From Squalus acanthias (lineage: Eukaryota), in NCBI GenBank assembly GCA_030390025.1, contig CM059430.1:72478001-72542000 (forward strand): DNA of 64,000 bases, written 5' to 3'. Of the stretch, positions 23,984-64,000 are shown one piece after another. The position numbers were made by a program, and so were the translations under genes. The notes under the pieces are model-generated. The model worked only from the letters and a program-made list of their open reading frames with translations, made no database searches and had not been told where the DNA came from. The first letter of the stretch is position 1. Each line of letters opens with the position of its first letter.

Positions 23984-24363
23984 TGCGGAGATGCCGGTGT
24001 TGGACTGGGGTGGACAAAAGAGGGAAGTCGCCCAACACCAGGTTACAGTCCAACAGTTTTATTTGAAATCACAAGCTTTCGGTGTGGCTGCCCCTTCGTC
24101 AGGTGAAGTGAAGGAATACGAATCGGCAAAGCATATATAGACAGAGAACAATGCATGTGTAGCGTACAATTTCAGATGACTACATTTAATCCTCCTGACT
24201 GCCTTTCATCACACCTCGGCAGAGAAACAATCAGGTCAGCCAGGAAGGCACCACATCAAATACATAGCAAGATATAACTGAGACAATGAGGTGGGGTCAC
24301 AGGGGGTGTAATGTGTCAAATGCAGCGGTCTGTTTGGAAAACCATAAACTTTAAAATTTAAAC
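23984..24363 (-). mobile_element. Non-coding PLE-terminus-like hammerhead cassette, copy 1
   Basis: 380-bp non-satellite insert flanked by TTTAAAGGAACAGTGA on both sides (23968-23983, 24364-24379). Hammerhead core at 24069-24106, with stem II mutated in this copy. Confidence 0.8.
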
Positions 24364-26438
24364 TTTAAAGGAACAGTGAGTAAGAGATTGGTGTGTAAAG
24401 GAACAGCGAGGGAGAAATAGGCGTGTAAAGTAACAGTAATTGTGAGATTTTCAGTGTAAAGGTACAGTGAGTGAGAGATTAGTGTGTAAAGGAACAGTGA
24501 GTGAGAGATTGGTGTGTAAAGGAACAGTGATTGAGAGATTGGGTTGTAAAGGAACAGTGAGTGAGAGATTGATGTGAAAAGGAACAGTGAGTGTGTGTTT
24601 GATGTGTAAAGGAACAGTGAGTGAGAGATTGTTGTGTAAAGGAACAGTGAGCGAGAGATTGCAGTTAAATGGGACACGAGTGAGAGATAGTTGTGTAAAG
24701 GGGCCGTGAGTGAGATTGGTGTGTAAAGGAACAGTGAGTGAGAGATTGTTGTGTAAAGGAACACGAGTGAGAGATAGTTGTGTAAAGTAGCAGTGAGTGA
24801 GAGATTGGTGAGTAAAGAAACATTGAGTGAGAGATTGGTGTGTAAAGGAACAGTGAGGGAGAGATTGGTGTGTAAAGGAACAGTGATGGAGAGATTGGTG
24901 TGTAAAGGAACAGTGAGTGAGAGATGGATGTGTAAAGGAACAGTGAATGAGAGATTGACGTGTAAAGTAACAGTGAGTGAGAAATTTATGTGTAAAGGAA
25001 CAGTGAGTGGGAGATTGGTGTGTGAAGGATGAGTGAGGGAGAAATAGGTGTGTAAGTAACAGTAATTGTGAGATTTTCAGTGTAAAGGTACAGTGAGTGA
25101 GAGATTGGTGTGTAAAGGAACAGTGATTGAGAGATTGGTGTGTAAAGGAACAGTGAGTAAGAGATTGGGTTGTAAAGGAACAGTGAGTCAGAGATTGATG
25201 TGTAAAGGAACAGTGAGTGAGAGATTGGTGTGTAAAGGAACAGTGAGTGAGAGATTGGTGTGTAAAGGAACAGTGAGTGACAGATTGATGTGTAAAGGAA
25301 TTGTGAGTGAGAGATAGTTGTGTAAAGGGGCAGTGAGTGAGAGATATGTGTATAAAGTAACAGGGAGTGTGAGATTTATACGTAAAGGAACAGCGAGTGA
25401 GAGATTGGTGTGTAAAGGAGAGTGAGTGAGAGATTGGTGTGTAAAGGAACAGTGAGTGAGAAATTGGTGTGTAAAGGAACAGTGAGTGAGAGACTGGTGT
25501 GTAAAGGAGCAGTGGATTAGAGATTGATGTGTAAAGGAACATTGAGTTAGTGATTGATGTGTAAAGGAACAGTGAGTAAGAGATTCGTGTGTAAAGGCAC
25601 ACGAGTGAGAGATTGGTGTGTAAAGGAACAGTGAGTGAGAGATTGGTGTGTAAAGGAACAGTGAGTGAGAGATTGGTGTGTAAAGGAACAGTGAGCTAGA
25701 GATTGATGTGTAAAGGAACATTGAGTGAGTGATTGATGTGTAAAGGAACAGTGAGTAAGAGATTGGTGTGTAAAGGCACACGAGTGTGAGATAGTTGTGT
25801 AAAGGGGCAGTGAGTGATAGATTGGTGTGTAAAGGAACAGTGAGTGAGAAATTGGTGTGTAAAGGAACAGTGAGTGAGAGATAGGTGTGTAAAGGAACAG
25901 TGAGTGAGAGATAGGTGTGTAAAGGAGCAGTGAGTTAGAGATAGGTGTGAAAAGGAATACTGAGTGAGAGATTGGTGTGTAAAGGAACAGTGAGTGAGAC
26001 ATTGATGTGCAAAGGAACACAAGTGAGAGATAGTTGTGTAAAGGAACAGTGAGTGAGAGATGTGTGTGTAAAGTAACAGTCAGTGGATACGGGTGTGTGT
26101 ATATTAACAGTGAGTGAGAGATGGGTGTGCATTGTAAGAGTGAGTGTGAGATCGGTGTGTAAAGTAGCACTGATTGAGAGATGTGTGTGTAAAGTAACAG
26201 TGAATGAGAGATGGGTGTGTAAAGTAACTAAAGTGAGGGATGGGTGTGAGACTCATAGTAATTAAGAGATGGATGTGTAAAAGAACAGTGAGTGAGAGAT
26301 GGATGTGTAAAGTAACAGTGAATGAGGGATAGGTGAGCAAAGGAATGGTGAGTGAGAGATGGGTGTGTAAATGAACTGTGGGTGAGAGAAGGGTGTGAGT
26401 CACAGTGAGTGAGAGATGAATGTTTAACAGAACATTGA

Positions 26439-27696
26439 TGCAGGTGCCGGTGTTGGACTGGGGTGGACAAAAGTGGGAAGTCGCCCAACACCAGGTGAAA
26501 GTCCAAGGGGTAGAAATTAGGTCGCGCCCCATTTGGGGCGCAAATATCGTCCGGACGCAAATATTAGCGCCTGGCGCTAATTATCGGCACTGACGGGAAA
26601 CTTCACTTTTACCGCCCCGGGAGGTGAGTGGATCGCTAAAGCAGGCGCTGCACACCTCTCTTAAGGCGCAAAGGCCGAGCAGTGAGGCGCTAACTCGGAG
26701 CGCTGGCGAAGCTCATGTAATGTCAGTCAGCAATGGAACACACACACAATGGCACGGGCCAGTTCTTAAAGGGGATGTTTAATCTTGCTTTCCATCCACA
26801 TCCTGTTCATTGCTGCCTTGAATCTCGGCCTGGAGAGACTTGCACATCAAATGTGCTGGAAAGAACAATGGAGAGCACCAGGCAAAGAGCTCAGAGTGCA
26901 GCTCCCACGGTCTCTGCTAAATCGATACAAGGAATGGCAAATCAAAATGAACCTGCAAAGTGCTGCTCAGTACCCAAAACTCCTTCACACAACGTTGAAT
27001 CTCTCCAGAAGTCTCTCCCTCTCTCTCTCAGAATGCGTAGTTCAAAAATGCCACCAACAATAAAAGAAAGGAAGAGGCCCCCTTTAAATAGCGCCCCCCC
27101 CCCCAGCCCCACAGCGATTGATAGCGTTCCAGTCTTCTGGTCGTTGGAAGCGCCAGGCGGTAAGGCAGGGGGCGTCACTCAATTTCCGCTACGGGGCGCC
27201 CCAAGGGCGTTGCACCATGGAATGACGTCACAATCTGCGCGCGCAGGTGGTCGCAGCGGTAAGTTTTAGCGCCGCCGCACAATCTCAAGTTAAGTTCTCG
27301 AGCGGCGCAAACATCGCTGCGCCCGGGCGTTAGCAGCTTTGCGCCCCATTAGCGCCCTCTTAAGGCGCTAACGGGTGGCACAACCAAGTGAATTTTTACC
27401 CCCAACAGTTTTATTTGAAATCCCAAGCTTTCGTAGCGGCTGCCCCTTCGTCAGGTGAAGTGAATGAATACGAATCGGCAAAGCATATATAGACAGAGAA
27501 CAATGCATGTGTATCGTACCATGTCAGACGACTACATTTAATCCTCCTGAATGCCTTTCATCACACCTCGGCAGAGAAACAATCAGGTCAGCCAGGAAGG
27601 CACCACATCAAATACATAACAAGATACAACTGAGACAATGAGGTGGGGTCACAGGGGGGTCTAATGTGTCAAATGCTGCAGTCTGTTTGGAAACTT
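26439..27696 (-). mobile_element. Hammerhead cassette copy 2, split by a DNA transposon insertion
   Basis: 26439-26506 and 27403-27696 join to give the cassette. Hammerhead motif at 27421-27458 (one stem II and one stem I mismatch). Confidence 0.8.
26507..27402. mobile_element. 896-bp non-autonomous PIF/Harbinger-like DNA transposon
   Basis: TIRs GGGGTAGAAATT / AATTTTTACCCC (11/12 match) and 3-bp TSD CAA (26504-26506, 27403-27405). The empty site GTCCAACAG is present in sister cassette copies. Confidence 0.88.
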
Positions 27697-30600
27697 TAAA
27701 GGAACAGTGAGCGAGAGATTGGTGTGTAAATGAACTGTGAGTGAGAGATTGTTGTGTAAAGGAACAGTGATTGAGAGATTGATGTGTAAAGGAACAGTGA
27801 GTCAGAGATAGGTTTGTAAAGGAACAGTGAGTGAGAGATTGGTGTGTAAAGGAACAGTGAGTGAGCGACAGGTGTGTAAAGGAAAAGTGAGTGAGCGATT
27901 GGTGTGAAAAGGGACAGTGAGTGACAGATTGATGTGTAAAGGAACAGTGAGTGAGAGATAGTTGTGTAAAGGGGCAGTGAGTGAGTGATATGTGTGTAAA
28001 CTAACAGTGAGTGAGAGATTTATAGGTAAAGGATCAGCGAGTGAGCGATTGGTGTGTAAAGGAACAGTGAGGGAGAGATAGGTGTGTAAAGGAACAGTGA
28101 GTGAGAGACTGGTGTGTAAAGGAACAGTGAGTTAGAAATAGGTGTGTAAAGGAACAGTGAGTGAGCGATTGGTGTGTAAAGGAACAGTGAGGGAGAAATA
28201 GGTGTGCAAAGTAACAGTAATTGAGATATTTTTAGTGTAAAGATACAGTGAGTGAGAGATTGGTGTGTAAAGGAACAGTGAGTGAGAGATTGGTGTGTAA
28301 AGGAACAGTGAGTGAGAGATTGGTGTGTAAAGGAACAGTGAGTGAGAGATTGGTGTGTAAAGGAACAGTGAGTGAGGGATTGGGTTGTAAAGGAACAGAG
28401 AGTGAGAGATTGGTGTGTAAAGGAACAGTGAGTGAGAGATTGGGTTGTAAAGGAACAGAGAGTGAGAGATTGGTGTGTGAAGGAACAGTGAGTGAGAGAT
28501 TGATGTGTAGAGGAACAGTGAGTGAGAGATTGGTGAGTAAAGGAACAGTGACCGAGAGATTGATGTGTAATGGAACATTGAGTGAGTGATTGATGTTTAA
28601 AGGAACAATGAGTAAGAGATTGTTGTGTGAAAGGAACACGTGTGAGAGATAGTTGCGTAAAGGGGCATTGAGTGATACATTGGTGTGTAAAGGAAAATTG
28701 AGTGAGAATTGGTGTGTAAAGGAACAGTGAGTGAGAGATAGGTGTGTAAAGGAACAGTGAATTAGAGATAGGTTTGTAAAGGAACACTGAGTGAGAGATT
28801 GGTGTGTAAAGATGCAGTGAGTGAGACATTGATGCGTAAAGGAACACGAGTGATAGATAGTTGAGTTAATGAACAGTGAGTGAGAGATAGTTGCGTAAAG
28901 GAACAGTGATTGAGAGATTGATGTGCAAAGGAAAAGGGAGTGAGAGATTGAAGTGTAAAGGAACAGTGAGGGAGAGATAGGTGTGTAAAGGAACAGCGAC
29001 TGAGAGACTGGTGTGTAAAGGAACAGTGAGTTAGAAATAGGTGTGTAAAGGAACAGTGAGTGAGAGATTGGTGTGTAAAGGAACAGTGAGTTAGAGATAG
29101 GTGTGTAAAGGAACACTGAGTTAGAGATTGGTGTGTAAAGGAACAGTAAGTGAGACATTGATGTGTAATGGAACACGAGTGAGTGTTTGATATGTAAAGG
29201 AACAGTGAGTGAGAGATTGTTGTGTAAAGGAACAGTGAGTGAGAGATTGCTGTTTAATGGGACACGAGTTAGAGATAGTTGTGTAAAGGGGCAGTGAGTG
29301 AGAGATTGGTTTGTAAAGGAAGAGTGAGTGAGAGTTTGTTGTGTAAAAGAACACGAGTGAGAGATAGTTGTGTAAAGGGGCAGTGAGTGAGAGATTGGTG
29401 TGTAAAGGAACAGTGAGTGAGAGATTGTTGTGTAAAGTATCACGAGTATGAGATAGTTATGTAAAGGAGCAGTGAGTGAGAGATTGGTGTGTAAAGGAAA
29501 TGTGAGTGAGAGACTGGTGTGAAAGGAACAGTGAGTGAGAGATTGGTGTGTAAAGGAACAGTGAGTGAGAGATTGGTGTGTAAAGGATCAGTGAGTGAGA
29601 GATTGATGTGTAAAGGAACAGTGAGTGAGAGATAGGTGTGTAAAGGAACAGTGAGGGAGAAATAGGTGTGTAAAGTAACAGTAATTGAGAGACATTTAGT
29701 GTAAAGGTACAGTGAGTGAGAGATTGGTGTGCAAAGGAAAAGTGAGTGAGTGATTGGTGTGTAAAGGAACAGTGAGTGCCAGATTGGGTTGTAAAGGAAC
29801 AGTGAGTCAGAGATTGATGTGTAAAGGAACAGTGAGTGAGAGATAGTTGTGTAAAGGAACAGTGATTGAGAGTTTGATGTGCAACGGAACAGTGAGTGAG
29901 AGATTGATGTGTAAAGGAACAGTGAGCGAGAGTTTGACGTGTAAAGGAACAGTGAGTGAGAGATTGTTGTGTAAAGTAACACGAGTGAGAGATAGTTGTG
30001 TAAAGGGGCAGTGAGTGAGAGAGTGGCGTGTAAAGGAACAGTGAGTGAGAGATTTATGTGTAAAGGAACAGAGAGTGAGAGATAGGTGTGTAAAGGAACA
30101 GTGAGTGAGAGATTGGTGTGTAAAGGAACAGTGAGTGAGAGATTGGTGTGTAAAGGAACAGTGAGTGAGAGATTGGTGCGTAAAGGAACAGTGATGGGGA
30201 GATTGGTGTGTAAAGGAACAGTGAGTGAGAGATTGGTGTGTAAAGGAACAGTCAGTCAGAGATTGATGTGTAACGGAACAGTGAGTGAGAGATTGGTGTG
30301 TAAAGGAACAGTGAGTCAGAGATTGGTTTGTAAAGGAACAGTGAGGGAGAGATGGGTGTGAGACTTACAGTGAGTGAGACAATGGTGTGTAAACAAACAG
30401 TGAGTGTGGGATGGGTGTGAGAATCACAGTGAGTCAGACACGGTGTGTGATTAACAGTGAGTAAGAGATGGATGTGTAGAGGAACGGTGAGTGAGAGATG
30501 GGTGTGCAAATTAACAGTGAGTGAGAAATGGGTGTGTAATGTAGCAATGATCGAGAGATTGGTGTGTAAAGGCACAGTGAGTGAGCGATTGGTGTGTAAA

Positions 30601-31056
30601 TGAAGAGTGAGTTAGAGATGACTGTGTAAAGTAACAGTGAGTGAGAGATCGGTGTGTAAAGTAATAGTGAGTGAGAGATGTGTGTGTAAAGTAACAGTCA
30701 GTGGATATGGGTGTGTGTATATTAACAGTGAGTGAGAGATGGGTGTGCATTGTAAGAGTGAGTGTGAGATCGGTGTGTAAAGTAGCACTGATTGAGAGAT
30801 GTGTGTGTAAAGTAACAGTGAATGAGAGATGGGTGTGTAAAGTAACTTAAGTGAGGGATGGGTGTGAGACTCATAGTAATTAAGAGATCGATGTGTAAAA
30901 GAACAGTGAGTGAGAGATGGATGTGTAAAGTAACAGTGAGTGAGGGATAGTTGTCCAAAGGAATTGTGAGTGAGAGATGGGTGTGTAAATGAACTGTGGG
31001 TGAGAGAAGGGTGTGAGTCACTGTGAGTGAGAGATGAATGTTTAACGGAACAGTGA

Positions 31057-31437
31057 AGCGGAGATGCCGGTGTTGGACTGGGGTGGACAAAAGTGGGAAG
31101 TCGCCCAACACCAGGTTATAGTCCAACAGTTTTATTTGAAATCCCAAGCTTTCGGAGCGGCTGCCCCTTCGTCAGGTGAAGTGAAGGAATACGAATCGGC
31201 AAAGCATATATAGAGAGAGAACAATGCATGTGTAGCATACCATGTCAGACGACTACATTTAATCCTCCTGAATGCCATTCATCACACCTCGGCAGAGAAA
31301 CAATCAGGTCAGCCAGGAAGGCACCACATCAAATACATAGCAAGATCAACTGAGACAATGAGGTGGGGTCACAGGGGGTCTAATGTGTCAAATGCTGCAG
31401 TCTGTATGGAAAACCATAAACTTTAAAATTTAAACTT
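31057..31437 (-). mobile_element. Hammerhead cassette copy 3
   Basis: Near-identical to copy 1, with the same satellite flanks. Confidence 0.8.
31142..31179 (-). ncRNA. Minimal type-I hammerhead ribozyme motif
   Basis: TCAC-CTGACGA-A-GGGGC-AGCC-GCTCC-GAAA-GC-TT-GGGA: stem II intact, one mismatch in stem I. Confidence 0.7.
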
Positions 31438-33450
31438 TAAAGGAACAGTGAGTAAGAGATTGGTGTGTAAAGGAACAGTGAGCGAGAGATTGGTGTGTAA
31501 AGGAACAGTGAGTGAGAAATTGGTGTGTAAAGGAAGTGAGTGAGATTTAGGTGTGTGAAGGAACAGTGATTGAGAGATTAATGTTTCAAGGAACAGTGAG
31601 TCAGAGATAGGTTTGTAAAGGAACAGTGAGTGATAGATTGGTGTGTAGTGTAACAGTGAGTGAGCGACAGTTGTGTAAAGGAACAGTGAGTGAGCGATTG
31701 GTGTGTAAAGGGACAGTGAGTTAGAGATTGATATGTAAAGGAACAGTGAGTGAGAGATTGGTGTGTAAAGGAACAGTGATTGATAGATAGATGTGTAAAG
31801 GAACAGTGAGTGAGAGATTGGTGTGTAAAGGAACAGTGAGTTAGAAATAGGTGTGAAAAGGAACAGTAAGTGAGGGATTGGTGTGTAAAGGAACAGTGAG
31901 TGAGAAATTGTTCTGTAAAGAAACAGTGAGTGAGTGATAGGTGTGTAAAGGAACAGTGAATGCGAGATTGGTGTTTAAAGCAACAGTGAGTTAGAGATAG
32001 GGGTGTAAAGGAACACGAGTGAGGGACAGTTGTGTAAAGGAACAATGAGTGAGAGATTGGTGTGTAAAGGAACAATGAGTGAGAGATGGGTGTGTAAAGG
32101 AACAGTGAGTGAGAGATTGCTGTTTAATGGGACACGAGTGAGAGATAGTTGTGTAAAGGGGCAGTGAGTGAGAGATTGATGTGTGGAGGAAGTGAGTGAG
32201 AGATTGTTGTGCAAAAAAACACAAGTGAGAGATAGTTGTGTAAAGGGGCAGTGAGTGAGTAATTGGTGTGTAAAGGAACAGTGAGTGAGAGATTGGCGTG
32301 TACAGGATCAGTGAGTGAGAGATTGGTGTTTAAAGGAACAGTGAGTGAGAGACTGGTCTGTAAAGAAAATGTGAGTGAGAGATTGATGTGTAAAGGAACA
32401 GTGAGTGAGAGATTGAAGTGTAAAGTAACAGTGAGTGAGAGATTTATGTGTAAAGGAACAGTGAGTAAGAGATTGTTGTGTGAAGGAACACGTGTGAGAG
32501 ATAGTTGTGTTAAGGGTCAGTGAGTGATACATTGGTGTGTAAAGGACAAGTGAGTGAGAAATTGGTGTGTAAAGGAACAGTGAGTGAGAGATTGGTGTGT
32601 AAAGGAGCAGTGAATTAGAGATAGGTGTGTAAAGGAACACTGAGTGAGAGATTGGTGTGTAAAGGAACAGTGAGTGAGACATTGATGCGTAAAGGAACAC
32701 GAGTGATAGATAGTTGTGTAAAGGAACAGTGAGCGAGAGTTTGACGTGTAAAGGAACAGTGAGTGAGAGATTGTTGTGTAAAGGAACACGAGTGAGAGAT
32801 AGTTGTGTAAAGGGGCAATGAGTGAGAGATTGGTGTGTAAAGGAACAGTGAGTGAGAGATTTATGTGTAAAGGCACAGTGAGAGAAAGATAGGTGTGTAA
32901 AGGAACAGTGAGTGAGAGATTGCTGTGTAAAGGAACAGTGAGGGAGAAATAGGCGTGTAAAGTCACAGTAATTGAGAGATTTTTAGTGTAAAGATACAGT
33001 GAGTGAGAGATTGGTGTGCAAAGGAACAGTGAGTGAGAGATTGGTGTGTAAAGGAACAGTGAGTGAGAGATTGGTGTGTAAAGGAACAGTGAGTTAGAGA
33101 TTGGTGTGTAAAGGAACAGTGAATGAGAGATTGGGTTGTAAAGGAACAGTGAGTGAGAGATGTGTGTGTAAAGTAACAGTCAGTGGATATGGGTGTGTGT
33201 ATATTAATAGTGAGTGAGAGATGGGTGTGCATTGCAAGAGTTAACGTGAGATCGGTGTGTAAAGTAGCACTGATTGAGACATGTGTGTGTAAAGTAACAG
33301 TGAGTGAGAGATGGATGTGTAAAGTAACAGTGAGTGAGGGATAGGTGTGCAAAGGAATTGTGAGTGAGTGATGGGTGTGTAAATGAACTGTGGGTGAGAG
33401 AAGGGGGTGAGTCACAGTGATTGAGAAATGAATGTTTAACGGAACAGTGA

Positions 33451-33831
33451 TGCGGAGATGCCGGTGTTGGACTGGGGTGGACAAAAGTGAGAAGTCGTCC
33501 AACACCAGGTTATAGTCTAACAGTTTTATTTGAAATCCCAAGCTTTCGGAGCGGCTGCCCCTTCGTCAGGTGAAGTGAAGGAATACGAATCGGCAAAGCA
33601 TATACAGACAGAGAACAATGCATGTGTAGCGGACAATGTCAGACGACTACATTTAATCCTCTTGACTACCTTTCATCACACCTCGGCAGAGAAACAATCA
33701 GGTTAGCCAGGAAGGCACCACATCAAATACATAGCAAGATCAACTGAGACAATGAGGTGGGGTCACAGGGGGTCTAATGTGTCAAATGCTGCAGTCTGTA
33801 TGGAAAACCATAAACTTTAAAATTTAAACTT
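33451..33831 (-). mobile_element. Hammerhead cassette copy 4
   Basis: Near-identical to copies 3 and 5. Confidence 0.8.
33536..33573 (-). ncRNA. Minimal type-I hammerhead ribozyme motif
   Basis: Same motif as 31142-31179. Confidence 0.7.
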
Positions 33832-36800
33832 TAAAGGAACAGTGAGTAAGAGATTGGTTTGTAAAGGAACAGTGAGCGAGAGATTGGTGTGTAAAGGAAC
33901 AGTGAGTGAGAAATTGGTGTGTAAAAAAGTGAGTGAGATTTAGGTGTGTGAAGGAACAGTGATTGAGAGATTAATGTTTCAAGGAACAGTGAGTCAGAGA
34001 TAGGTTTGTAAAGGAACAGTAAATGATAGATTGGTGTGTAGAGGAACAGTGAGTGAGCGACAGGTGTGTAAAGGAACATTGAGTGAGCGATTGGTGTGTA
34101 AAGGGACAGTGAGTTAGAGATTGATATGTAAAGGAACAGTGAGTGAGAGATTGGTGTGTAAAGGAACAGTGAGTGAGAAATTGTTCTGTAAAGGAACAGT
34201 GAGTGAGTGATAGGTGTGTAAAGGAACAGAGAATGCAAGATTGGTGTTTAAAGGAACAGTGAGTTAAAGATAGGGGTGTAAAGGAACACTGAATGAGAGA
34301 TTGTTGTGTAAAGGAACAGTGAGTGAGACATTGATGTGTAAAGGAACACGAGTGAGAGACAGTTGTGTAAAGGAACAATGAGTGAGAGATTGGTGTGTAA
34401 AGGAACAGTGAGTGAGAGATTGATGTGTAAAGGAACAGTGAGTGAGTGTTTGATGTGTAAAGGAACAATGAGTGAGAGATGGGTGTGTAAAGGAACGGTA
34501 AGTGAGAGATTGCTGTTTAATGGGACACGAGTGAGAGATAGTTGTGTAAAGGGGCAGTGAGTGAGAGATTGATGTGTGAAGGAAGTGAGTGAGAGATTGT
34601 TGTGTAAAAGAACACAAGTGAGAGATAGTTGTGTAAAGGGGGAGTGAGTGAGAGATTGGTGTGTAAAGGAACAGTGAGTGAGAGATTGTTGTGTAAAGGA
34701 ACACGAGTGAGAGATAGTTGTGTAAAGGAGCAGTGAGTGAGAGATTGGTGTGTAAAAGAAGAGTGAGTGAGAGATTGGTGTGTAAAGGGACAGTGAGTGA
34801 GAGACTGGTCTGTAAAGAACATGTGAGTGAGAGATTGATGTGTAAAGGAACAGTGAGTGAGAGATTGACGTGTAAAGTAACAGTGAGTGAGAGATTTATG
34901 TGTAAAGGAGCAGTGAGTGAGAGATAGGTGTGTAAAGGAACAGTGAGTGAGAGATTGGTGTTTAAAGGAACAGTGAGGGAGAAATAGGTGTGTAAAGTAA
35001 CAGTAATTGAGAGAGTTTTAGTGTAAAGGTACAGTGAGTGAGAGATTGGTGTGTAAAGGAACAGTGAGTGAGAGATTGGTGTGTAAAGCAACTGTGAGTG
35101 AGAGATTGGTGTGTAATGGAACAGTGAGTGTCAGATTGGTGCGTAAAGGATCAGTGATTGAGAGATTGTTGTGTAAAGGAACAGTGACTGAGAGATTGGG
35201 TTGTAAAGGAACAGTGAATCAGAGATTGATGTGTAAAGGAACAGTGAGTGAGAGATTGGTGTCTAAAGGAACAGTGAGTGAATAATTGGTGTGTAAAGGA
35301 ACAGTGAGTGACAGATTGATGTGTAAAGGAACAGTGAGTGAGAGATAGTTGTGTAAAGGGGCAGTAAGTGAGAGATATGTGTGTAAAGTAACAGGGAGTG
35401 AGAGATTAATACGTAAAGGAACAGTGAGTGAGAGATTGGTGTGTAAAGGAACAGTGAGTGAGAGATTGGTGTGTAAAGAACAGTGAGTGAGAGATTGGTG
35501 TGTAAAGGAACAGTGAGCGAGAGATTGGGTTGTAAAGGAACAGAGAGTGAGAGATTGGTGTGTAAAGGAACAGTGATTGAGAGATTGATGTGTAAAGGAA
35601 CAGTGACTGAGAGCGTGATGTGTATAGGAACAGTGAATGAGTGAATGATGTGTAAAGGAACAGTGAGTAAGAGATTGTTGTGTGAAGGAACACGAGTGAG
35701 AGATAGTAGATTAAAGGGGCAGTGAGTGATACATTGATGTGTAAAGGAATTGTGAGTGAGAGATAGGTGTGTAAAGGAACAGTGATTGAGAGATTGGTGT
35801 GTAAAGGAACAGTGAGTGAGACATTGATGCGTAAAGGAACACGAGTGAGAGATAGTTGTGTTAATGAACAGTGAGTGAGAGATTGATGTGCAAAGGAAAA
35901 GTGAGTGAGAGATTGATGTGTAAAGGAACAGTGACCGAGAGTTTGACGTGTAAAGGAACAGTGAGTGAGAGATTGTTGTGTAAAGGAACACGAGTGAGAG
36001 ATAGTTGTGTAAAGCGGCAGTGAGTGAGAGATTGGTGTGTAAAGGAACAGTCAGTGAGCGATTTATGTGTAAAGGAACAGTGAGAGAAAGATAGGTGTGT
36101 AAAGGAACAGTGAGTGAGCGATTGGTGTGTAAAGGAACAGTGAGGGAGAAATAGGTGTGCAAAGTAACAGTAATTGAGACATTTTTAGTGTAAAGATACA
36201 GTGAGTGAGAGATTGGTGTGTAAAGGAACAGTGAGTGAGAGATTGGTGTGTAAAGGAACAGTGAGCGAGAGATTGGTGTGTAAAGGAACAGTGAGTGAGA
36301 GATTGGTGTGTAAAGGAACAGTGAGTGAGGGATTGGCTTGTAAAGGAACAGAGAGTGAGAGATTGGTGTGTAAAGGAACAGTGAGTGAGAGATTGGGTTG
36401 TAAAGGAACAGAGAGTGAGAGATTGGTGTGTGAAGGAACAGTGAGTGAGAGATTGATGTGTAGAGGAACAGTGAGTGAGAGATTGGTGAGTAAAGGAACA
36501 GTGACCGAGAGATTGATGTGTAATGGAACTTTGAGTGAGTGATTGATGTTTAAAGGAACAGTGAGTAAGAGATTGTTGTGTGAAAGGAACACGTGTGAGA
36601 GATAGTTGTGTAAAGGGGCATTGAGTGATACATTGGTGTGTAAAGGAAAATTGAGTGAGAATTGGTGTGTAAAGGAACAGTGAGTGAGAGATAGGTGTGT
36701 AAAGGAACAGTGAATTAGAGATAGGTTTGTAAAGGAACACTGAGTGAGAGATTGGTGTGTAAAGAAGCAGTGAGTGAGACATTGATGCGTAAAGGAACAC

Positions 36801-37640
36801 GAGTGATAGATAGTTGAGTTAATGAACAGTGAGTGAGAGATAGTTGCGTAAAGGAACAGTGATTGAGAGATTGATGTGCAAAGGAAAAGGGAGTGAGAGA
36901 TTGAAGTGTAAAGGAACAGTGAGTGAGAGATTGACGTGTAAAGGAACAGTGAGTGAGAGATTGTTGTGTAAAGGAACACGAGTGAGAGATAGTTGTGTAA
37001 AGGGGTAATGAGTGAGAGATTGGTGTGTAAAGGAACAGTGAGTGAGAGATTTATGTGTAAAGGAACAGTAAGAGAAATATAGGTGTGTAAAGGAACAGTG
37101 AGTGAGAGATTGGTGTGTAAAGGAACAGTGAGGGAGGAATAGGCATGTAAAGTAACAGTAATTGAGAGATTTTTAGTGTAAAGATACAGTGAGTGAGAAA
37201 TTGGTGTGCAAAGGAACAGTGAGTGAGAGATTGGTGTGTAAAGCAACAGTGAATGAGAGATTGGTGTGTAAAGGAACAGTGAGTTAGAGTTTGGTGTGTA
37301 AAGGAACAGTGAATGAGAGATTGGGTTGTAAAGGAACAGTGAGTGAGAGATGTGTGTGTAAAGTAACAGTCAGTGGATATGGGTGTGTGTATATTAATAG
37401 TGAGTGAGAGATGGGTGTGCATTGCATGAGTTAATGTGAGATCGGTGTGTAAAGTAGCACTGATTGAGACATGTGTGTGTAAAGTAACAGTGAGTGAGAG
37501 ATGGATGTGTAAAGTAACAGTGAGTGAGAGATAGGTGTGCAAAGGAATTGTGAGTGAGTGATGGGTGTGTAAATGAACTGTGGGTGAGAGAAGGGGGTGA
37601 GTCACAGTGATTGAGAAATGAATGTTTAACGGAACAGTGA

Positions 37641-53000: not shown

Positions 53001-56000
53001 GAGATTGGTGTGTAAAGGAACAGTGAGTGAGAGATTGATGCGTAAAGGAACAGTGAGTGAGAAATTGACGTGTAAAGTAACAGTGAGTGAAATATTTATG
53101 TGTAAAGGATCAGTGAGTGAGAGATTGGTGTGTAAAGGAACAGTGAGTGAGAGATTGTTGTGTAAAGGAATAGTGAGTGAGAGATTCGGTTGTAAAGGAA
53201 CAGTGAGTGAGAGATTTATGTGTAAAGGAACAGTGAGAGAAAGATAGGTGTGCAAAGGAACAGTGAGTGAGCGATTGTTGTGTAAAGGAACAGTGAGGGA
53301 GAAATAGGTGTGCAAAGTAACAGTAATTGAGATATTTTTAGTGTAAAGATACAGTGAGTGAGAGATTGGTGTGAAAAGGAACAGTGAATGAGAGATTGGG
53401 TTGTAAAGGAACAGTGAGTCAGAGATTGATGTGTAAAGGAACAGTGAGTGAGAGATTGGTGTGTAAAGGAACAGTGAGTGAGAGATTGGTGTGTAAAGGA
53501 ACAGTGAGTGACAGATTGGTGTGTAAAGGAACAGTGAGTGAGAGATTGGTGTGTAAAGGAACAGTGAGTGAGGGATTGGGTTGTAAAGGAACAGAGAGTG
53601 AGAGATTGGTGTGTAAAGGAACAGTGAGTGAGAGATTGGGTTGTAAAGGAACAGAGGTGAGAGATTGGTGTGTGAAGGAACAGTGAGTGAGAGATTGATG
53701 TGTAGAGGAACAGTGAGTGAGAGATTGGTGAGTAAAGGAACAGTGACCGAGAGATTGATGTGTAATGGAACATTGAGTGAGTGATTGATGTTTAAAGGAA
53801 CAGTGAGTAAGAGATTGTTGTGTGAAAGGAACACGTGTGAGAGATAGTTGTGTAAAGGGGCATTGAGTGATACATTGGTGTGTAAAGGAAAATTGAGTGA
53901 GAATTGGTGTGTAAAGGAACAGTGAGTGAGAGATAGGTGTGTAAAGGAACAGTGAATTAGAGATAGGTTTGTAAAGGAACACTGAGTGAGAGATTGGTGT
54001 GTAAAGAAGCAGTGAGTGAGACATTGATGCGTAAAGGAACACGAGTGATAGATAGTTGAGTTAATGAACAGTGAGTGAGAGATAGTTGCGTAAAGGAACA
54101 GTGATTGAGAGATTGATGTGCAAAGGAAAAGGGAGTGAGAGATTGAAGTGTAAAGGAACAGTGAGCGAGAGTTTGACGTGTAAAGGAACAGTGAGTGAGA
54201 GATTGTTGTGTAAAGGAACACGAGTGAGAGATAGTTGTGTAAAGGGGTAATGAGTGAGAGATTGGTGTGTAAAGGAACAGTGAGTGAGAGATTTATGTGT
54301 AAAGGAACAGTAAGAGAAATATAGGTGTGTAAAGGAACAGTGAGTGAGAGATTGGTGTGTAAAGGAACAGTGAGGGAGGAATAGGCATGTAAAGTAACAG
54401 TAATTGAGAGATTTTTAGTGTAAAGATACAGTGAGTGAGAAATTTCTGTGCAAAGGAACAGTGAGTGAGAGATTGGTGTGTAAAGCAACAGTGAGTGAGA
54501 GATTGGTGTGTAAAGGAACAGTGAGTTAGAGTTTGGTGTGTAAAGGAACAGTGAATGAGAGATTGTGTTGTTAAGGAACAGTCAGTGTCAGATTGATGTG
54601 TAAAGGAACAGTGAGTGAGAGATAGTTGTATAAAGGGGCAGTGATTGAGAGATATGTGTGGAAAGTAACAGTGAGTGAGAGATTTATACGTAAAGAGACA
54701 GTGAGTGAGAGATTGGTGTGCAAAAAGGAACAGTGAGTGAGAGATTGGTGTGTAAAGGAACAGTGAGTGAGAGATTGCTGTTTAATGGGACACGAGTGAT
54801 AGATAGTTGTGTAAAGGGGCAGTGAGTGAGAAATTGGTGTGTAAAGGAACAGTGCGTGAGAGATTGTTGTGTAAAGGAACACGAGTGAGAGATAGTTGTG
54901 CAAAGGAGCAGTGAGTGAGAGATTGGTGTGTATAGGAACAGTGAGTGAGAGATTGGTCTGTAAAGGATCAGTGAGTGAGAGATTGGTGTGTGAAGGAACA
55001 GTGAGTGAGAGAAAGTCTGTAAAGAAAATGTGAGTGAGAGATTGATGTGTTAAGGAACAGAAAGTGAGAGATTGACGTGTAAAGTAACAGTGAGTGAGAG
55101 ATTTAGGTGCAAAGGAACAGTGAGTGAGTGCTAGCTGTGTAAAGGAACAGTGAGTGAGAGATTGGGGTGTAAAGGAACAGTGAGTGAGAGATTGGTGCGT
55201 AAAGGTTCAGTGATTGAGAGATTGGTGTGAAAAGGAACAGTGAATGAGAGATTGGGTTGTAAAGGAACAGTGAGTCAGAGATTGATGTGTAAAGGAACAG
55301 TGAGTGAGAGATTGGTGTGTAAAGGAACAGTGAGTGAGAGATTGGTGTGTAAAGGAACAGTGAGTGACAGATTGGTGTGTAAAGGAACAGTGAGTGAGAG
55401 ATTGGTGTGTAAAGTAACAGTGAGTGAGGGATTGGGTTGTAAAGGAACAGAGAATGAGAGATTGGTGTGTAAAGGAACAGTGAGTGAGAGATTGGGTTGT
55501 AAAGGAACAGAGGTGAGAGATTGGTGTGTGAAGGAACAGTGAGTGAGAGATTGATGTGTAGAGGAACAGTGAGTGAGAGATTGGTGAGTAAAGGAACAGT
55601 GACCGAGAGATTGATGTGTAATGGAACATTGAGTGAGTGATTGATGTTTAAAGGAACAGTGAGTAAGAGATTGTTGTGTGAAAGGAACACGTGTGAGAGA
55701 TAGTTGTGTAAAGGGGCATTGAGTGATACATTGGTGTGTAAAGGAAAATTGAGTGAGAATTGGTGTGTAAAGGAACAGTGAATTAGAGATAGGTTTGTAA
55801 AGGAACACTGAGTGAGAGATTGGTGTGTAAAGAAGCAGTGAGTGAGACATTGATGCGTAAAGGAACGCGAGTGATAGATAGTTGAGTTAATGAACAGTGA
55901 GTGAGAGATAGTTGCGTAAAGGAACAGTGATTGAGAGATTGATGTGCAAAGGAAAAGGGAGTGAGAGATTGAAGTGTTAAGGAACAGTGAGCGAGAGTTT

Positions 56001-59000
56001 GACGTGTAAAGGAACAGTGAGTGAGAGATTGTTGTGTAAAGGAACACGAGTGAGAGATAGTTGTGTAAAGGGGTAATGAGTGAGAGATTGGTGTGTAAAG
56101 GAACAGTGAGTGAGAGATTTATGTGTAAAGGAACAGTAAGAGAAATATAGGTGTGTAAAGGAACAGTGAGTGAGAGATTGGTGTGTAAAGGAACAGTGAG
56201 GGAGGAATAGGCATGTAAAGTAACAGTAATTGAGAGATTTTTAGTGTAAAGATACAGTGAGTGAGAAATTGGTGTGCAAAGGAACAGTGAGTGAGAGATT
56301 GGTGTGTAAAGCAACAGTGAGTGAGAGATTGGTGTGTAAAGGAACAGTGAGTTAGAGATTGGTGTGTAAAGGAACAGTGAATGAGAGATTGTGTTGTTAA
56401 GGAACAGTCAGTGTCAGATTGATGTGTAAAGGAACAGTGAGTGAGAGATAGTTGTATAAAGGGGCAGTGATTGAGAGATATGTGTGGAAAGTAACAGTGA
56501 GTGAGAGATTTATACGTAAAGAGACAGTGAGTGAGAGATTGGTGTGCAAAAAGGAACAGTGAGTGAGAGATTGGTGTGTAAAGGAACAGTGAGTGAGAGA
56601 TTGCTGTTTAATGGGACACGAGCGATAGATAGTTCTGTAAAGGGGCAGTGAGTGAGAAATTGGTGTGTAAAGGAACAGTGCGTGAGAGATTGTTGTGTAA
56701 AGGAACACGAGTGAGAGATAGTTGTGCAAAGGAGCAGTGAGTGAGAGATTGGTGTGTATAGGAACAGTGAGTGAGAGATTGGCCTGTAAAGGATCAGTGA
56801 GTGAGAGATTGGTGTTTGAAGGAACAGTGAGTGAGATAAAGTCTGTAAAGAAAATGTGAGTGAGAGATTGATGTGTAAAGGAACAGTGAGTGAGAGATTG
56901 ACGTGTAAAGTAACAGTGAGTGAGAGATTTAGGTGCAAAGGAACAGTGAGTGAGTGCTAGCTGTGTAAAGGAACAGTGAGTGAGAGATTGGTGTGTAAAG
57001 GAACAGTGAATGAGAGATTGGGTTGTAAAGGAACAGTGAGTCAGAGATTGATGTGTAAAGGAACAGTGAGTGAGAGATTGGTGTGTAAAGGAACAGTGAG
57101 TGAGAGATTGGTGTGTAAAGGAACAGTGAGTGAGAGATTGGTGTGTAAAGGAACAGTGAGTGAGAGATTGATGTGTAAAGGAACAGTGAGTGAGAGATTG
57201 GTGTGTAAAGGAACAGTGAGTGAGAGATTGGTGTGTAAAGGAACAGTGAGTGAGAGATTGGTGTGTAAAGAACAGTGAGTGAGAGATAGGTGTGTAAAGG
57301 AACAGTGAGTGAGAGATTGGTGTGTAAAGGAACAGTGAGTGAGAGATTGGTGTGTAAAGGAACAGTGAGTGAGAGATTGTTGTGTAAAGGAACAGTGATT
57401 GAGAGATTGATGTGTAAAGGAACAGTGAGTGAGAGCTTGATGTGTAAAGGAACAGTGAGTGAGAGCCTGATGTGTAAAGGAACAGTGAGTGAGCGATTGA
57501 TGTGTAAAGGAACATTGAGTGAGTGATTGATGTGTAAAGGAACAGTGATTGAGAGATAGGTGTGTAAAGGAACAGTGAGTGAGAGATTGGTGTGTAAAGG
57601 AACAGTGAGTGAGACATTGATGTGTAAAGGAACACGAGTGAGAGATAGTTGTGTAAATGAACAGTGAGTGAGAGATTGGCGTGTAAAGGAACAGTGAGTG
57701 AGAGATTGGGTTGTAAAGGAACAGAGAGTTAGAGATTGGTGAGTAAAGGAACAGTGACCGAGAGATTGATGTGTAATGGAACATTGAGTGAGTGATTGAT
57801 GTGTAAAGGAACAGTGAGTAAGAGATTGTTGTGTGAAGGAACACGAGTGAGAGATAGTTGTGTAAAGGGGCAGTGAGTGACACATTCGTGTGTAAAGGAA
57901 CAGTGAGTGAGAAATTGGTGTGTAAAGGAACAGTGAGTGAGAGATAGGTGTGTAAAGGAACAGTGAATGAGAGATTGGTGTGTAAAGGAGCAGTGAATTA
58001 GAGATAGGTGTGTAAAGGAACACTGAGTGAGAGATTGGTGTGTAAAGGAACAGTGAGTGAGACATTGATGCGTAAAGGAACACGAGTGAGAGATAGTTGT
58101 TTTAATGAACAGTGAGTGAGAGATTGGTGTGTAATGGAACAGTGATTGAGAGATTGATGTGCAAAGGAAAAGTGAGTGAGAGATTGATGTGTAAAGGAAC
58201 AGTGAGCGAGTGATTGGTGTGTAAAGGAACAGTGAGTGAGAGATAGATGTGTAAAGGGGCAGTGATTGAGAGATATGTGTGTAAAGTAACAGTGAGTGAG
58301 AGATTTTTACGTAAAGAAACAGTGAGTGAGAGATTGGTGTGTAAAGGAACAGTGAGAGAGATTGTTGTGTAAAGGAACAGTGATTGAGAGATTGATGTGT
58401 AAAGGAACAGTGAGTGAGAGATTGTTGTGTAAAGGAACAGTGAGTGAGAGAATGTTGTGTAAAGGAACAGTGATTGAGAGATTGATGTGTAAAAGAACAG
58501 TGTGTGAGAGCTTGATGTGTAAAGGAACAGTGAGTGAGCGATTGATGTGTAAAGGAACATTGAGTGAGTGATTGATGTGTGAAGGAACAGTGAGTAAAGA
58601 TTGGTGTGTAAAGGAACACGAGTGAGAGATAGTTGTGTAAAGGGGAATTGAGTGAGAGATTGGTGTGTAAAGGAACAGTGAGTGAGAGATTGATGCGTAA
58701 AGGAACAGTGAGTGAGAAATTGACGTGTAAAGTAACAGTGAGTGAAATATTTATGTGTAAAGGATCAGTGAGTGAGAGATTGGTGTGTAAAGGAACAGTG
58801 AGTGAGAGATTGTTGTGCAAAGGAATAGTGAGTGAGAGATTCGGTTGTAAAGGAACAGTGAGTGAGAGATTGATGTGTAAACGAAGAGTGAGTGAGAGAT
58901 AGGTGTGTAAAGGGGCAATGAGGGAGAGATATGTGTGTAAAGGAACAGTGAGTGAGAGATTGGTGTGTAAAGGAACAGTGAGTGAGAGATTGGTGTGCAA

Positions 59001-62000
59001 AGGAATAGTGAGTGAGAGACTGGTGTGTAAAAGAACAGTGAGTGATAGATTGGGTTGTAAAGGAACAGTGAGTGAGAGATTGTTTTGTAAAGGAACAGTG
59101 AGTGAGAGATTGATGTGTAAAGGAACAGTGAGTGAGAGATTGGGTTGTAAAGGAACAGTGAGTGAGAGATTGATGTGTAAAGGAAGAGTGATTGAGAGAT
59201 TGAAGTGTAAAGGAACAGTGAGTGAGATATAGTTGTGTAAAGGGGCAGTGAGTGAGAGATATGTGTTTAAAGGAACAGTGAGTGAGAGATTGGTGTGTAA
59301 AGGAACAGTGAGTGAGAGATTGGTGTGCAAAGGAATAGTGAGTGAGAGATTGGTGTGTAAAAGAACAGTAAGTAATAGATTGGGTTGTAAAGGAACAGTG
59401 AGTGAGAGATTGGTGTGTAAAGGAACAGTGAGTGAGAGATTGGTGTGTAGAGGAACAGTGAGTGACAGATTGATGTGTAAAGGAAAAGTGAGTGAGAGAT
59501 TGATGTGTAAAGGAACAGTGAGCGAGAGTTTGACGTGTAAAGGAACAGTGAGTGAGAGATTGCTGTGTAAAGGAACACGAGAGAGAGATAGTTGTGTAAA
59601 GGGGCAGTGAGTGAGAGATTGGTGTGTAAAGGAACAGTCAGTGAGAGATTTATGTGTAAAGGAACAGTGAGAGAAAGATAGGTCTGTAATGGAACAGTGA
59701 GTGAGAGATTGGTGTGTAAAGGAACAGTGAGTGAGAGATTGGTGTGTTAAGGAACAGTGAGTATGAGATTGGTGTGTAAAGGAACAGTGAATGAGAGATT
59801 GTGTTGTAAAGGAACAGTGAGTGAGAGATTTTTACATAAAGAAACAGTGAGTGAGAGGTTGGTGTGTAAAGGAACAGTGAGTAAGAGATTGTTGTGTGAA
59901 GGAACACGTGTGAGAGATAGTTGTGTAAAGGGGCAGTGAGTGATACATTCGTGTGTAAAGGAACAGTGAGTGAGAGATAGGTGTGTAAAGGAACAGTGAA
60001 ATGGAGATTGGTGTGTAAAGGAGCAGTGAATTAGAGATAGGTGTGTAAAGGAACACTGAGTGAGAGATTGGTGTGTAAAGGAACAGTGAGTGAGACATTG
60101 ATGCGTAAAGGAACACGAGTGAGAGATAGTTGTGTTAATGAACAGTGAGTGAGAGATTGGTGTGTAAAGGAACAGTGATTGAGAGATTGATGTGCAAAGG
60201 AAAAGTGAGTGAGAGATTGATGTGTAAAGGAACAGTGAGCGAGAGTTTGACGTGTAAAGGAACAGTGAGTGAGAGATTGTTGTGTAAAGGAACACGAGAG
60301 AGAGATAGTTGTGTAAAGGGGCAGTGAGTGAGAGATTGGTGTGTAAAGGAACAGTCAGTGAGAGATTTATGTGTAAAGGAACAGTGAGAGAAAGATAGGT
60401 GTGTAAAGGAACAGTGAGTGATAGATTGGTGTGTAAAGGAACAGTGAGGGAGAAATAGGTGTGTAAATTAACAGTAATTGAGAGATTTTTAGTGTAAAGG
60501 TACAGTGAGTGAGAGATTGGTGTGTAAAGGAACAGTGAGTGAGAGATTGGTGTGTAAAAGAACAGTGAGTGAGAGATTGGTGTGTAAAGGAACAGTGAGT
60601 ATGAGATTGGTGTGTAAAGGAACAGTGAATGAGAGATTGTGTTGTAAAGGAACAGTGAGTGAGAGATTTTTACGTAAAGAAACAGTGAGTGAGAGATTGG
60701 TATGTAAAGGAACAGTGAGTGAGAGATTGTTGTGTAAAGGAACAGTGATTGAGAGATTGATGTGTAAAGGAACAGTAAGTGAGAGATTGTTGTGTAAAGG
60801 AACAGTGAGTGAGAGATTGTTGTGTAAAGGAACAGTGATTGAGAGATTGATGTGTAAAGGAACAGTGAGTGAGAGCTTGATGTGTAAAGGAACAGTGAGT
60901 GAGAGCTTGATATGTAAAGGAACAGTGAGCGAGAGTTTGACGTGTAAAGTAACAGTGAGTGAAATATTTATGTGTAAAGGATCAGTGAGTGAGAGATTGG
61001 TGTGTAAAGGAACAGTGAGTGAGCGATTGATGTGTAAAGGAACATTGAGTGAGTGATTGATGTGTGAAGGAACAGTGAGTAAAGATTGGTGTGTAAAGTA
61101 ACACGAGTGAGAGATAGTTGTGTAAATGAACAGTGAGTGAGAGATTGGTGTGTAAAGGAACAGTGAGTGAGAGATTGATGCGTAAAGGAACAGTGAGTGA
61201 GAAATTGACGTGTAAAGTAACAGTGAGTGAAATATTTATGTGTAAAGGATCAGTGAGTGAGAGATTGGTGTGTAAAGGAACAGTGAGTGAGCGATTGATG
61301 TGTAAAGGAACATTGAGTGAGTGATTGATGTGTGAAGGAACAGTGAGTAAAGATTGGTGTGTAAAGGAACACGAGTGGGAGATAGTTGTGTAAAGGGGAA
61401 GTGAGTGATAGTTTGGTTTGTAAAGGAACAGTGACTGAGAAATTGGGGTGTAAAGGAGCAGTGAGTGAGAGATAGGGGTGTAAAGGAACAGTGAGTGAGA
61501 GATTGGTGTGTAAAGGAACAGTGAGTGAGAAATTGACGTGTAAAGTAACAGTGAGTGAAATATTTATGTGTAAAGGATCAGTGAGTGAGAGATTGCTTTG
61601 TAAAGGAGCAGTGAGTGAGAGATTGTTGTGTAAAGGAACAGTGAGTGAGAGATTGATGCGTAAAGGAACAGTGAGTGAGAAATTGACGTGTAAAGTAACA
61701 GTGAGTGAAATATTTATGTGTAAAGGATCAGTGAGTGAGAGATTGCTTTGTAAAGGAGCAGTGAGTGAGAGATTGTTGTGCAAAGGAATAGTGAGTGAGA
61801 GATTGGTGTGTAAAAGAACAGTGAGTGATTGATTGGGTTGTAAAGGAACAGTGAGTGTGATATTGTTTGGTAAAGGAACAGTGAGTGAGAGATTGATGTG
61901 TAAAGGAACAGTGAGTGAGAGATTGGGTTGTAAAGGAACAGTGAGTGAGAGATTGATGTGTAAACGAAGAGTGAGTTAGAGATAATTGTGTAAAGGGGCA

Positions 62001-62842
62001 GTGAAGGAGAGATATGTGTGTAAAGGAACAGGGAGTGAGAGATTGGTGTGTAAAGGAACAGTGAGTGAGAGATTGGTGTGCAAAGGAATAGTGAGTGAGA
62101 GATTGGTGTGTAAAAGAACAGTGAGTGATAGATTGGGTTGTAAAGGAACAGTGAGTGAGAGATTGATGTGTAAAGGAACAGTGAGTGAGAGATTGGGTTG
62201 TAAAGGAACAGTGAGTGAGAGATTGATGTGTAAAGGAAGAGTGAGTGAGAGATTGAAGTGTAAAGGAACAGTGAGTGATAGATTGGGTTGTAAAGGAACA
62301 GTGAGTGAGATATTGTTTTGTAAAGGAACAGTGAGTGAGAGATTGATGTGTAAAGGAACAGTGAGTGAGAGATTGGGTTGTAAAGGAACAGTGAGTGAGA
62401 GATTGATGTGTAAAGGAAGAGTGAGTGAGAGATTGAAGTGTAAAAGAACAGTGAGTGAGAGATAGTTGTGTAAAAGGGCAGTGAGTGAGAGATATATGTG
62501 TAAAGGAACAGTGAGTGAGAGATTGGTGTGTAAAGGAACAGTGAGTGAGAGATTGGTTTGCAAAGGAACAGTGAGTGAGAGATTGGTGTGTAAAAGAACA
62601 GTAAGTTACAGATTGGGTTGTAAAGGAACAGTGAGTGAGAGATTGTTGTGTAAAGGAACAGTGAGTGAGAGATTGATGTGTAAAGGAACAGTGAATGAGA
62701 GATTGGTGTCTAAAGGAACAGTGAGTGAGAGATTGATGTGTAAAGGAACAGTGAATGAGAGATTGGTGTGTAAAGGAACTGTGAGTGAGTAATAGGTGTG
62801 TATAGGAACAGTGAGTGAGAGATGCGTGTGTAGATTCACAAT

Positions 62843-63602
62843 GGCCCGAAAATTAGACCTAATACGCGAGAGTACGCACTGTGTACTCTCGCGTATTAGT
62901 TCCCGAATTGCCCGTTTCCTGCATGCACTGTGCATGCGCGGGAAACCGGCACTTCGTGTATTGCAAAGGGGGCGGTTCCTAAGTGAACCGCGTGTGCACT
63001 ACAGGTTGTGCGCACGCAGCACACTTAGTTTTTTTTCAGGTTTGAACGCGCAGGTAAGTGGTGAAGATTTTACACATAAAGAAAGCAGGCGTAGGACCCC
63101 CTTTTAAAAAGGTAAGTAGTTAATTAAGTGTTATTTTAATTTTTTTTCAACAGGTTAATCTTTTTTAGAGACTTTAAAGAAAAGTAAGTTTATTTTTATA
63201 ACTTTTAAAAAGATTTTAAATTTTTTCAAAAATAATTTTTTGTTTAAAGTGGTTAATTTATTTAACTATAGTTATTTTATTAATGTGATGGATTTTTAAA
63301 AATTTAATTGAGGTTTTGCTGTTCTTTTGGGGGCTTGTAGTATTCATAGCTTTGACAGCCATTGCTGTCAAAACTATGAATGAAAGATGGTGTGCTGCCA
63401 TTGGCTCTAACTGAATCACGTGATCCCAGAGCTCGCACGAACTAATTGCGCCTCTGGACCACGCAAGCACTGCACGCTGGCAACAGGGAGAGGCCCTGCA
63501 ACTGAAGTTCGTGTGGGCCCAAAACAAAAACGTGGGCGTGGAGTGCGATATCGCGGGGAATCCTTACCCCCGTGGGAACCATCGATGTTTAATTTCTGGG
63601 CC
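62843..63602. mobile_element. 760-bp non-autonomous PIF/Harbinger-like DNA transposon
   Basis: TIRs GGCCCGAAAATTA / TAATTTCTGGGCC (11/13 match), 3-bp TSD AAT (62840-62842, 63603-63605), GC-rich palindromic ends and an AT-rich centre. Confidence 0.85.
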
Positions 63603-63786
63603 AATGTCTGAGAGATGGGCGTGTAAAGGAAAAGTGAGGGAGACATGCGTGTATAAAGTCAAAATGTGTGAACGATGGGTGTCTAAAGTCACAGTGAGTG
63701 AGAGATGGGTGTGTGAGTCACTGCGAGTGAGAGATTGTTGTGTAAAGTAGCAGTGAATGAGGAATGGATGTGTAAAGTAAAAGTCA

Positions 63787-64000
63787 TGATGCGGAGTTAC
63801 CGGTGTTGGACTGGGGTGGACAAAAATGAGAAGTCGCACAACACCAGGTTATAGTCCAACAGTTTTATTTGAAATCACAAGCTTTCGGAGCTTACGTGGC
63901 CCCTTCCTCAGGTGAAGTGAAGAAATACAGAATCGACAAATCATATATAGATAGAGAACAATGCATGTGTAACTTACAATGGCAGACAACTACATTTAAA
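63787..64000 (-). mobile_element. Hammerhead cassette copy 6 (diverged, runs off window)
   Basis: Homologous to copies 1-5 but more diverged and with a different left flank. Confidence 0.8.
63875..63915 (-). ncRNA. Minimal type-I hammerhead ribozyme motif (best-paired copy)
   Basis: TCAC-CTGAGGA-A-GGGGC-CACGTAA-GCTCC-GAAA-GC-TT-GTGA: stems I and II fully paired. Confidence 0.78.

Follow-up and report, generated by a model that had tools for sequence, protein, structure and literature searches.

Why should six hammerhead ribozymes stand in a single orientation within a minisatellite? The question is raised by a 64,000-nucleotide stretch of the Squalus acanthias genome (assembly GCA_030390025.1, contig CM059430.1, positions 72,478,001–72,542,000; hereafter the window, to which all coordinates refer), in which ~13 kb of mixed DNA is followed by a 30-bp G-rich satellite running from 13,027 nearly to the window end. 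A non-coding cassette of ~380 bp occurs six times in the window, every copy on the minus strand (Table 1). An initial annotation of this DNA had proposed that the ribozymes propagate the satellite as RNA units. Our analysis supports another reading: the motif is real and fits the known ribozyme of Penelope-like elements (PLEs), and it was probably co-amplified passively with the satellite.

Cassette anatomy and hammerhead motifs

Read in minus orientation, the cassette opens with ~230 bp that code for no protein; a TATA-like box follows and then, 20 bp on, an initiator-like (Inr-like) TCACT, the ribozyme, AATAAA and a ~75-nt tail. The TATA–TCACT gap is 20 bp in copies 1–5 and 21 bp in copy 6, with one base of the box changed in copy 4. 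AATAAA begins 10 nt past the predicted cut in 6/6 copies, and the initial description of six ~380-bp non-coding minus-strand cassettes with a hammerhead core and AATAAA is thus borne out. Each cassette contains CUGANGA-A and GAAA-GC-UU ahead of AATAAA and conforms to the minimal type I consensus (CUGANGA plus an unpaired base, GAAA, NUH and a G10.1–C11.1 pair; 6/6), with a loop-less palindromic helix III, AGCU, in all six copies that gives 4/4 pairs between copies. The class first assigned to the motif, a PLE-type minimal type I hammerhead with a palindromic stem III and a requirement for dimers, agrees with the consensus of Cervera and De la Pena (2014; PMC4209133).

A partial-stem descriptor picked out seven motifs across the window but not one in any of 100 order-2 Markov simulations. 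Five of the seven duplicate one another, which leaves about three independent motifs. Further hits at 9708 (+) and 10109 (+) lack the stems and were rejected as chance. The seventh motif belongs to another family and had been overlooked in the initial annotation (see below). An Rfam scan of the whole window, Hammerhead_1 having been named in advance as the model to use, gave no match at E ≤ 1, probably because the model does not cover motifs without helix III.

Stems I and II had also been read in all six copies. The cores are present in 6/6, but both helices are fully paired only in copy 6 (1/6). Pairing amounts to 3/4 in stem I and 4/5 in stem II of copy 2, and to 3/4 and 5/5 in copies 3, 4 and 5, where A opposes G in the second of the four stem I base pairs. 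Since the paired stem I base is common to copies 1 and 6, this mismatch arose once, before copies 2–5 multiplied. An 896-bp insert interrupts copy 2, whose ribozyme therefore lies at 27421–27458 and not near 26.5 kb, where it had been placed. Predicted cut sites (24073, 27425, 31146, 33540, 37730 and 63879) are 3352, 3721, 2394, 4190 and 26149 bp apart, so that the spacing of 2.4–4.6 kb given earlier does not hold throughout.

Among copies 1–5, substitutions affect 4/38 ribozyme columns and 28/298 other columns (p = 0.77, a comparison with little power); all four in the ribozyme break a pair and none is compensated. Modelled energies of the active dimer are −18.1 kcal/mol for copy 6 with itself, −10.3 for pairs among copies 3–5, −4.5 for copy 1 with itself and +1.7 for copy 2 with itself. 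The active fold was never the minimum-energy structure in short dimer constructs, intact copies included, and only relative energies were therefore used.

By its sequence the cassette looks like a solo PLE pseudo-long terminal repeat (pLTR): promoter-like motifs, hammerhead and tail are combined in one short terminal repeat. As its source, a non-autonomous PLE derivative is as possible as a PLE 3′ end. Copy 1 is bounded by a target-site duplication that lends moderate support, being sited inside a repeat; the 16-mer variant concerned occurs 26 times in the window vs 488 times for the consensus form. No duplication is visible for copy 6, which runs off the window end. In a search with the translated cassette, the tail matched one 55-aa protein record (37 aa, 68%, E = 5.5e-08, then diverging), which weakly suggests that the tail is present elsewhere. 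A similar tail may be a common shark repeat. Two exact 25-nt scans of a prokaryotic genome collection, made to catch stray host DNA, gave no DNA match, and none was expected there. The literature, covered in part through titles and the beginnings of abstracts, gave no account of this shark family, nor of any minisatellite in which a pLTR had been co-amplified.

Copying within the satellite array

Copies 1–5 have both satellite junctions in common (copy 2 without 22 bp at one of them), and their left flanks show the same series of 10–13 diagnostic monomers on the monomer map. The array comprises two monomer types, the more diverged A-type at 13.0–24.0 kb and the B-type from 24.4 kb, with kilobase-scale higher-order duplications. 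Copies 2–5 carry an A-type flank which, together with the position of copy 1, suggests that copy 1 is the original. The blocks shared around copies 1–5 amount to 7–56 monomers; they reach across the cassette and stop within satellite sequence. Copy 5 lies in a 2-kb block that is 98.7% identical to the block around copy 4. Pairwise divergence among the five is 0.8–5.7%. When the near-identical 4/5 pair is left out, the differences number 7–10/150 in the left flank, 4–6/~89 in the tail and 9–15/~280 5′ of the cut, a similar divergence on either side, and the predicted cut site is therefore not a boundary. Judged by these junctions and flanks, copies 1–5 are the descendants of one putative insertion. 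An origin by 3′ transduction was rejected, as the 5′ junction and upstream monomers are common to the copies.

The satellite spacers between the cassettes are not copies of each other; they are mosaics in which 12–49% of the length is common to one another and 36–56% to cassette-free array. The 25-kb part of the array that holds no cassette served as an internal control. In an ungapped monomer scan (a gapped monomer-level version merged into one chain and was uninformative), 81% of it is covered by duplicated blocks of at least 10 monomers, the longest being 116 monomers, 99.9% identical and up to 3.5 kb. The array therefore amplifies without ribozymes, most recently where none occur. A PLE end merely co-amplified was the outcome that the initial annotation had set against its own proposal, and it is the one to which the common flanks, the decaying helices and the cassette-free amplification in the window point.

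Retroelement insertions can multiply with flanking monomers in satellite higher-order repeats by array turnover; the present case is set apart from this general phenomenon by the ribozyme motif of its passenger. We infer the following course. A single copy would have been inserted at an AT-rich satellite site by target-primed reverse transcription, leaving the 16-bp duplication that is seen at copy 1. Unequal exchange or gene conversion would then have copied the cassette with 0.3–2 kb of flanking monomers four times. The ribozymes would since have decayed as passengers, presumably with loss of activity, the stem I mismatch predating the multiplication of copies 2–5. Ribozyme function would belong to the transposition cycle of the parent element and not to the satellite.

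Copy 6 stands apart. It is 9–13% diverged from copies 1–5, whose flanks rank only 1157–1472 of 1582 positions as matches to the copy 6 flank and are not orthologous to it. Most likely the same family inserted here a second time, although copy 6 may be a much older duplicate with a replaced flank. Its orientation is that of copy 1 and its monomer register nearly so, which could reflect chance, microhomology, old duplication or target preference.

Copy 3 looks mosaic, resembling copy 2 at two sites, copies 4–5 in an indel and the right flank, and copy 1 in the far-left flank; these few sites suggest gene conversion. Over 13027–62842, A-type monomers are 17–20% from the common monomer and are older, and B-type monomers are 8–11% from it. 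The A-type region left of copy 1 has its own 1353-bp higher-order repeat at 17.5–22.2 kb, and the A/B border coincides with copy 1.

Other elements of the window

The seventh minimal hammerhead, intact and located at 5822–5858 (−), lies in the 3′ non-coding end of a 5′-truncated PLE of another family. The GIY-YIG remnant of this second PLE comprises 88 aa with one stop and has 8 relatives among 117 candidates, the nearest named one, from the skate Leucoraja erinacea, with 69% identity. Pfam recognised no family in the 88-aa remnant, which was identified through its relatives only; in the best of them, the GIY-YIG match is below threshold (E = 0.008) and the reverse transcriptase (RT) domain may be of another element. 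The cassette and the 5.8-kb element have no sequence similarity beyond 10–17-nt words. A TTAAAA ~30 nt before an Inr-like motif adjoining the ribozyme echoes the cassette layout. The target duplications of the second PLE (left one at 5745–5758) and of copy 1 both carry a terminal TTTAAA, located at opposite ends when the two elements are oriented alike, which fits an AT-rich nicking preference.

The insert that splits copy 2 is likely a non-autonomous DNA transposon. Pfam found nothing above cut-off in its six frames and no coding domain was recognised; its features would make it PIF/Harbinger-like. A second element resembling a miniature inverted-repeat transposable element lies near the right end of the array (62843–63602); it is 760 bp long and carries terminal inverted repeats as well as a 3-bp duplication. 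Outside the array are a (TTC)27 microsatellite at 1628–1708 and degraded stretches resembling long interspersed nuclear elements at about 2780–4730 (+) and 10730–12720 (−), judged by eye from the sequence. An immunoglobulin superfamily (IgSF) gene on the minus strand is represented by a signal-peptide-like exon at 9552–9618 and an open V-set exon at 9014–9334 (Pfam V-set, E = 8.7e-10); its exons have phase-1 splice sites, and a 146-N gap lies at 8819–8964.

Table 1 Positions of the cassettes, the array and other elements in the 64,000-nt window
Feature	Position	Strand	Basis or remark
Cassette copy 1, solo pLTR-like PLE end	23984..24363	-	probably original insertion at A/B border
Minimal hammerhead, copy 1	24069..24106	-	core from 24102; stem I 4/4, stem II 3/5; predicted cut 24073/24072
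TATA-like box, copy 1	24132..24139	-	motif position; 20 bp upstream of Inr-like TCACT
AATAAA 3′ of ribozyme, copy 1	24058..24063	-	motif present in 6/6 copies
Target-site duplication of copy 1, left, 16 bp	23968..23983	+	identical to 24364-24379
Target-site duplication of copy 1, right, 16 bp	24364..24379	+	identical to 23968-23983
Cassette copy 2, split by DNA-transposon-like insert	26439..27694	-	hammerhead 27421-27458, core from 27454
Insert in copy 2, 896 bp, GC-rich, palindrome-rich	26507..27402	.	short terminal inverted repeats, 3-bp target duplication
Cassette copy 3	31057..31435	-	hammerhead 31142-31179, core from 31175
Cassette copy 4	33451..33829	-	hammerhead 33536-33573, core from 33569
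Cassette copy 5	37641..38019	-	hammerhead 37726-37763, core from 37759
Cassette copy 6, incomplete at window end	63787..64000	-	hammerhead 63875-63915, core from 63911
30-bp G-rich satellite array	13027..63786	.	Tandem Repeats Finder period 30, ~1667 copies; monomer map
Cassette-free 25-kb array part, youngest higher-order duplications (internal control)	38024..62842	.	monomer block scan
5′-truncated PLE, another family	5759..6402 (5745-6416 with target duplications)	-	GIY-YIG C-terminal remnant, hammerhead, 14-bp target duplication

Known systems, alternative explanations and meaning

According to PMC4209133, the minimal type I hammerheads of PLEs are mostly single motifs from truncated elements. 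The cassette motifs resemble these in CUGANGA with one unpaired base, G10.1–C11.1, a loop-less palindromic 15.2–16.2, a 4-bp helix I and a setting that is U-rich before and AU-rich after; they differ in that five are clustered through satellite duplication, no open reading frame is attached and the helices are damaged in 5/6. In a turtle motif (Fig. S3 of PMC4209133) the GC palindrome and UU recur and AAAUAAA follows; the poly(A)-like signal is therefore not peculiar to this locus. In the rotifer Adineta vaga, a Penelope pLTR has a TATA box 20 bp from TCACT, and sequences between two pLTRs have been mobilised in trans (PMC3846280). The TATA–20 bp–TCACT arrangement, solo pLTRs and a target-site duplication are shared with those elements, whereas no pLTR–spacer–pLTR unit with its own bounding target duplication was found in the window. 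PLE 5′ truncation, pLTR promoters and start sites, and tails have also been described (PMC8557442, PMC6765202).

Non-LTR retrozymes and hammerhead satellites such as those of newt and axolotl (~330–350 bp) are likewise of type I, in repeated DNA, PLE-derived and dimer-dependent, and the 380-bp cassette is near the 363-bp average for one chondrichthyan species (bioRxiv 10.64898/2026.07.22.740005). In retrozymes, however, the ribozyme-bearing sequence is itself the head-to-tail repeat unit, of ~300 bp (PMC7229834) or 51–972 bp with a ribozyme in each unit (bioRxiv 10.64898/2026.07.22.740005), whereas here it is a rare insert, six in ~1,600 monomers, in a 30-bp satellite to which it is unrelated; the spacers are unequal and lack homology, and the motif is minimal and not canonical. 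If retrozymes are taken as head-to-tail units below ~1 kb, at least two of them consecutive and each with a hammerhead, the cassettes fall outside the class, with a spacing of 2.4–26 kb and spacers that are not end-to-end homologous.

The passive reading is favoured because the motif fits the PLE consensus and the TATA box, 20 bp and TCACT fit the described pLTR, and because a truncated PLE of the same ribozyme architecture is present at 5759–6402. Several points weigh against it. Pfam found no family in the six frames of copy 1, and no RT or GIY-YIG is attached to the cassette, which leaves its PLE parent putative. In a five-row alignment search that included the 55-aa record, only that record was recovered among 825 near-length candidates, and none of 8000 longer proteins carried the translated tail, the latter a weak negative; the three protein searches gave a single relative, and genome-wide dispersal of the cassette stays a supposition. 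The comparison of ribozyme and other columns has low power to reveal constraint, and 14 core nucleotides are invariant in 6/6 copies (chance 0.25 for copies 1–5, 0.05 with copy 6), a weak hint of constraint. The hammerhead of copy 6 is intact, and since stem I forms between copies in a dimer, a core of copy 3, 4 or 5 could pair fully with the copy 1 site.

These last points bear on the alternative that survives best, although we consider it unlikely: the cassettes may be candidate small RNA polymerase II units that give short or read-through satellite RNA, cut occasionally at copy 1 or 6; such RNA could contribute to silencing the array. A predicted start ~7 nt before the core with AATAAA ~50 nt later would suit such units, the TATA–Inr spacing is kept in 6/6 copies (one TATA base changed in copy 4), promoters and start sites are held by PLE pLTRs (PMC8557442, PMC6765202), and both the copy 6 homodimer and the copy 3/4/5 core on the copy 1 site are fully paired. 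The motifs would, however, simply be inherited from the pLTR; minimal-motif dimers cleave weakly (PMC4209133), and an anole ribozyme needed protein, with RNA-seq lacking ends at the cut site in the account given by PMC11167929.

Still less probable is a retrozyme-like system of the kind first proposed, in which minus-strand RNA is cut by dimeric hammerheads into multi-kilobase units that circularise and are reinserted by a PLE RT, or its variant in which cassette–satellite–cassette units are mobile in trans. Six intact, co-oriented cores, promoter-like motifs in each cassette, a 2.4–4.2 kb spacing that resembles the distance separating both pLTR ribozymes in a full PLE (~3 kb; PMC4209133) and the trans-mobilisation of pLTR-flanked sequences in the rotifer (PMC3846280) would all accord with it. 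Yet cut-to-cut units are not copies of each other, the common blocks continue across the cut site and terminate within satellite, and co-orientation is a consequence of tandem duplication. A stem I mismatch older than the duplication affects 4/5 clustered cut sites, described retrozyme units of 51–972 bp have a ribozyme each, and 8/9 Xenopus retrozyme dimers tested did not cleave (bioRxiv 10.64898/2026.07.22.740005). With non-homologous spacers, decaying helices and an array that amplifies without cassettes, ribozyme-driven propagation of satellite RNA units is not upheld. A more elaborate variant is just as doubtful, namely that the PLE family prefers this satellite and that pLTR–satellite–pLTR transcription units, with damaged copies complementing one another (cores 3–5 cutting the copy 1 site), are moved in trans by PLE RT and seed the minisatellite at new loci.

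Least credible is the suggestion, also made at the outset, that the ribozymes and AATAAA are kept to terminate read-through toward the IgSF gene: the cassettes share a strand with this V-set gene at 9.0–9.6 kb, but 14.5 kb separate its start codon from the nearest predicted cut site, an interval that includes 11 kb of satellite without cassettes and a further five AATAAA signals on the minus strand, the helices are decaying, the promoter-like motifs of the cassettes themselves face the gene, and nothing ties the cassettes to it.

With passive co-amplification as the preferred reading, the locus illustrates clearly how hammerheads can come to be clustered without having a function, through a PLE end hitch-hiking in satellite turnover; this is relevant to pipelines in which co-oriented ribozymes are taken as the sign of a retrozyme. 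A further gain is a PLE hammerhead family of chondrichthyan type, whose natural helix variants could be used in assays. Should satellite-preferring, trans-mobilised units exist after all, they would link the PLE machinery to the spread of vertebrate minisatellites.

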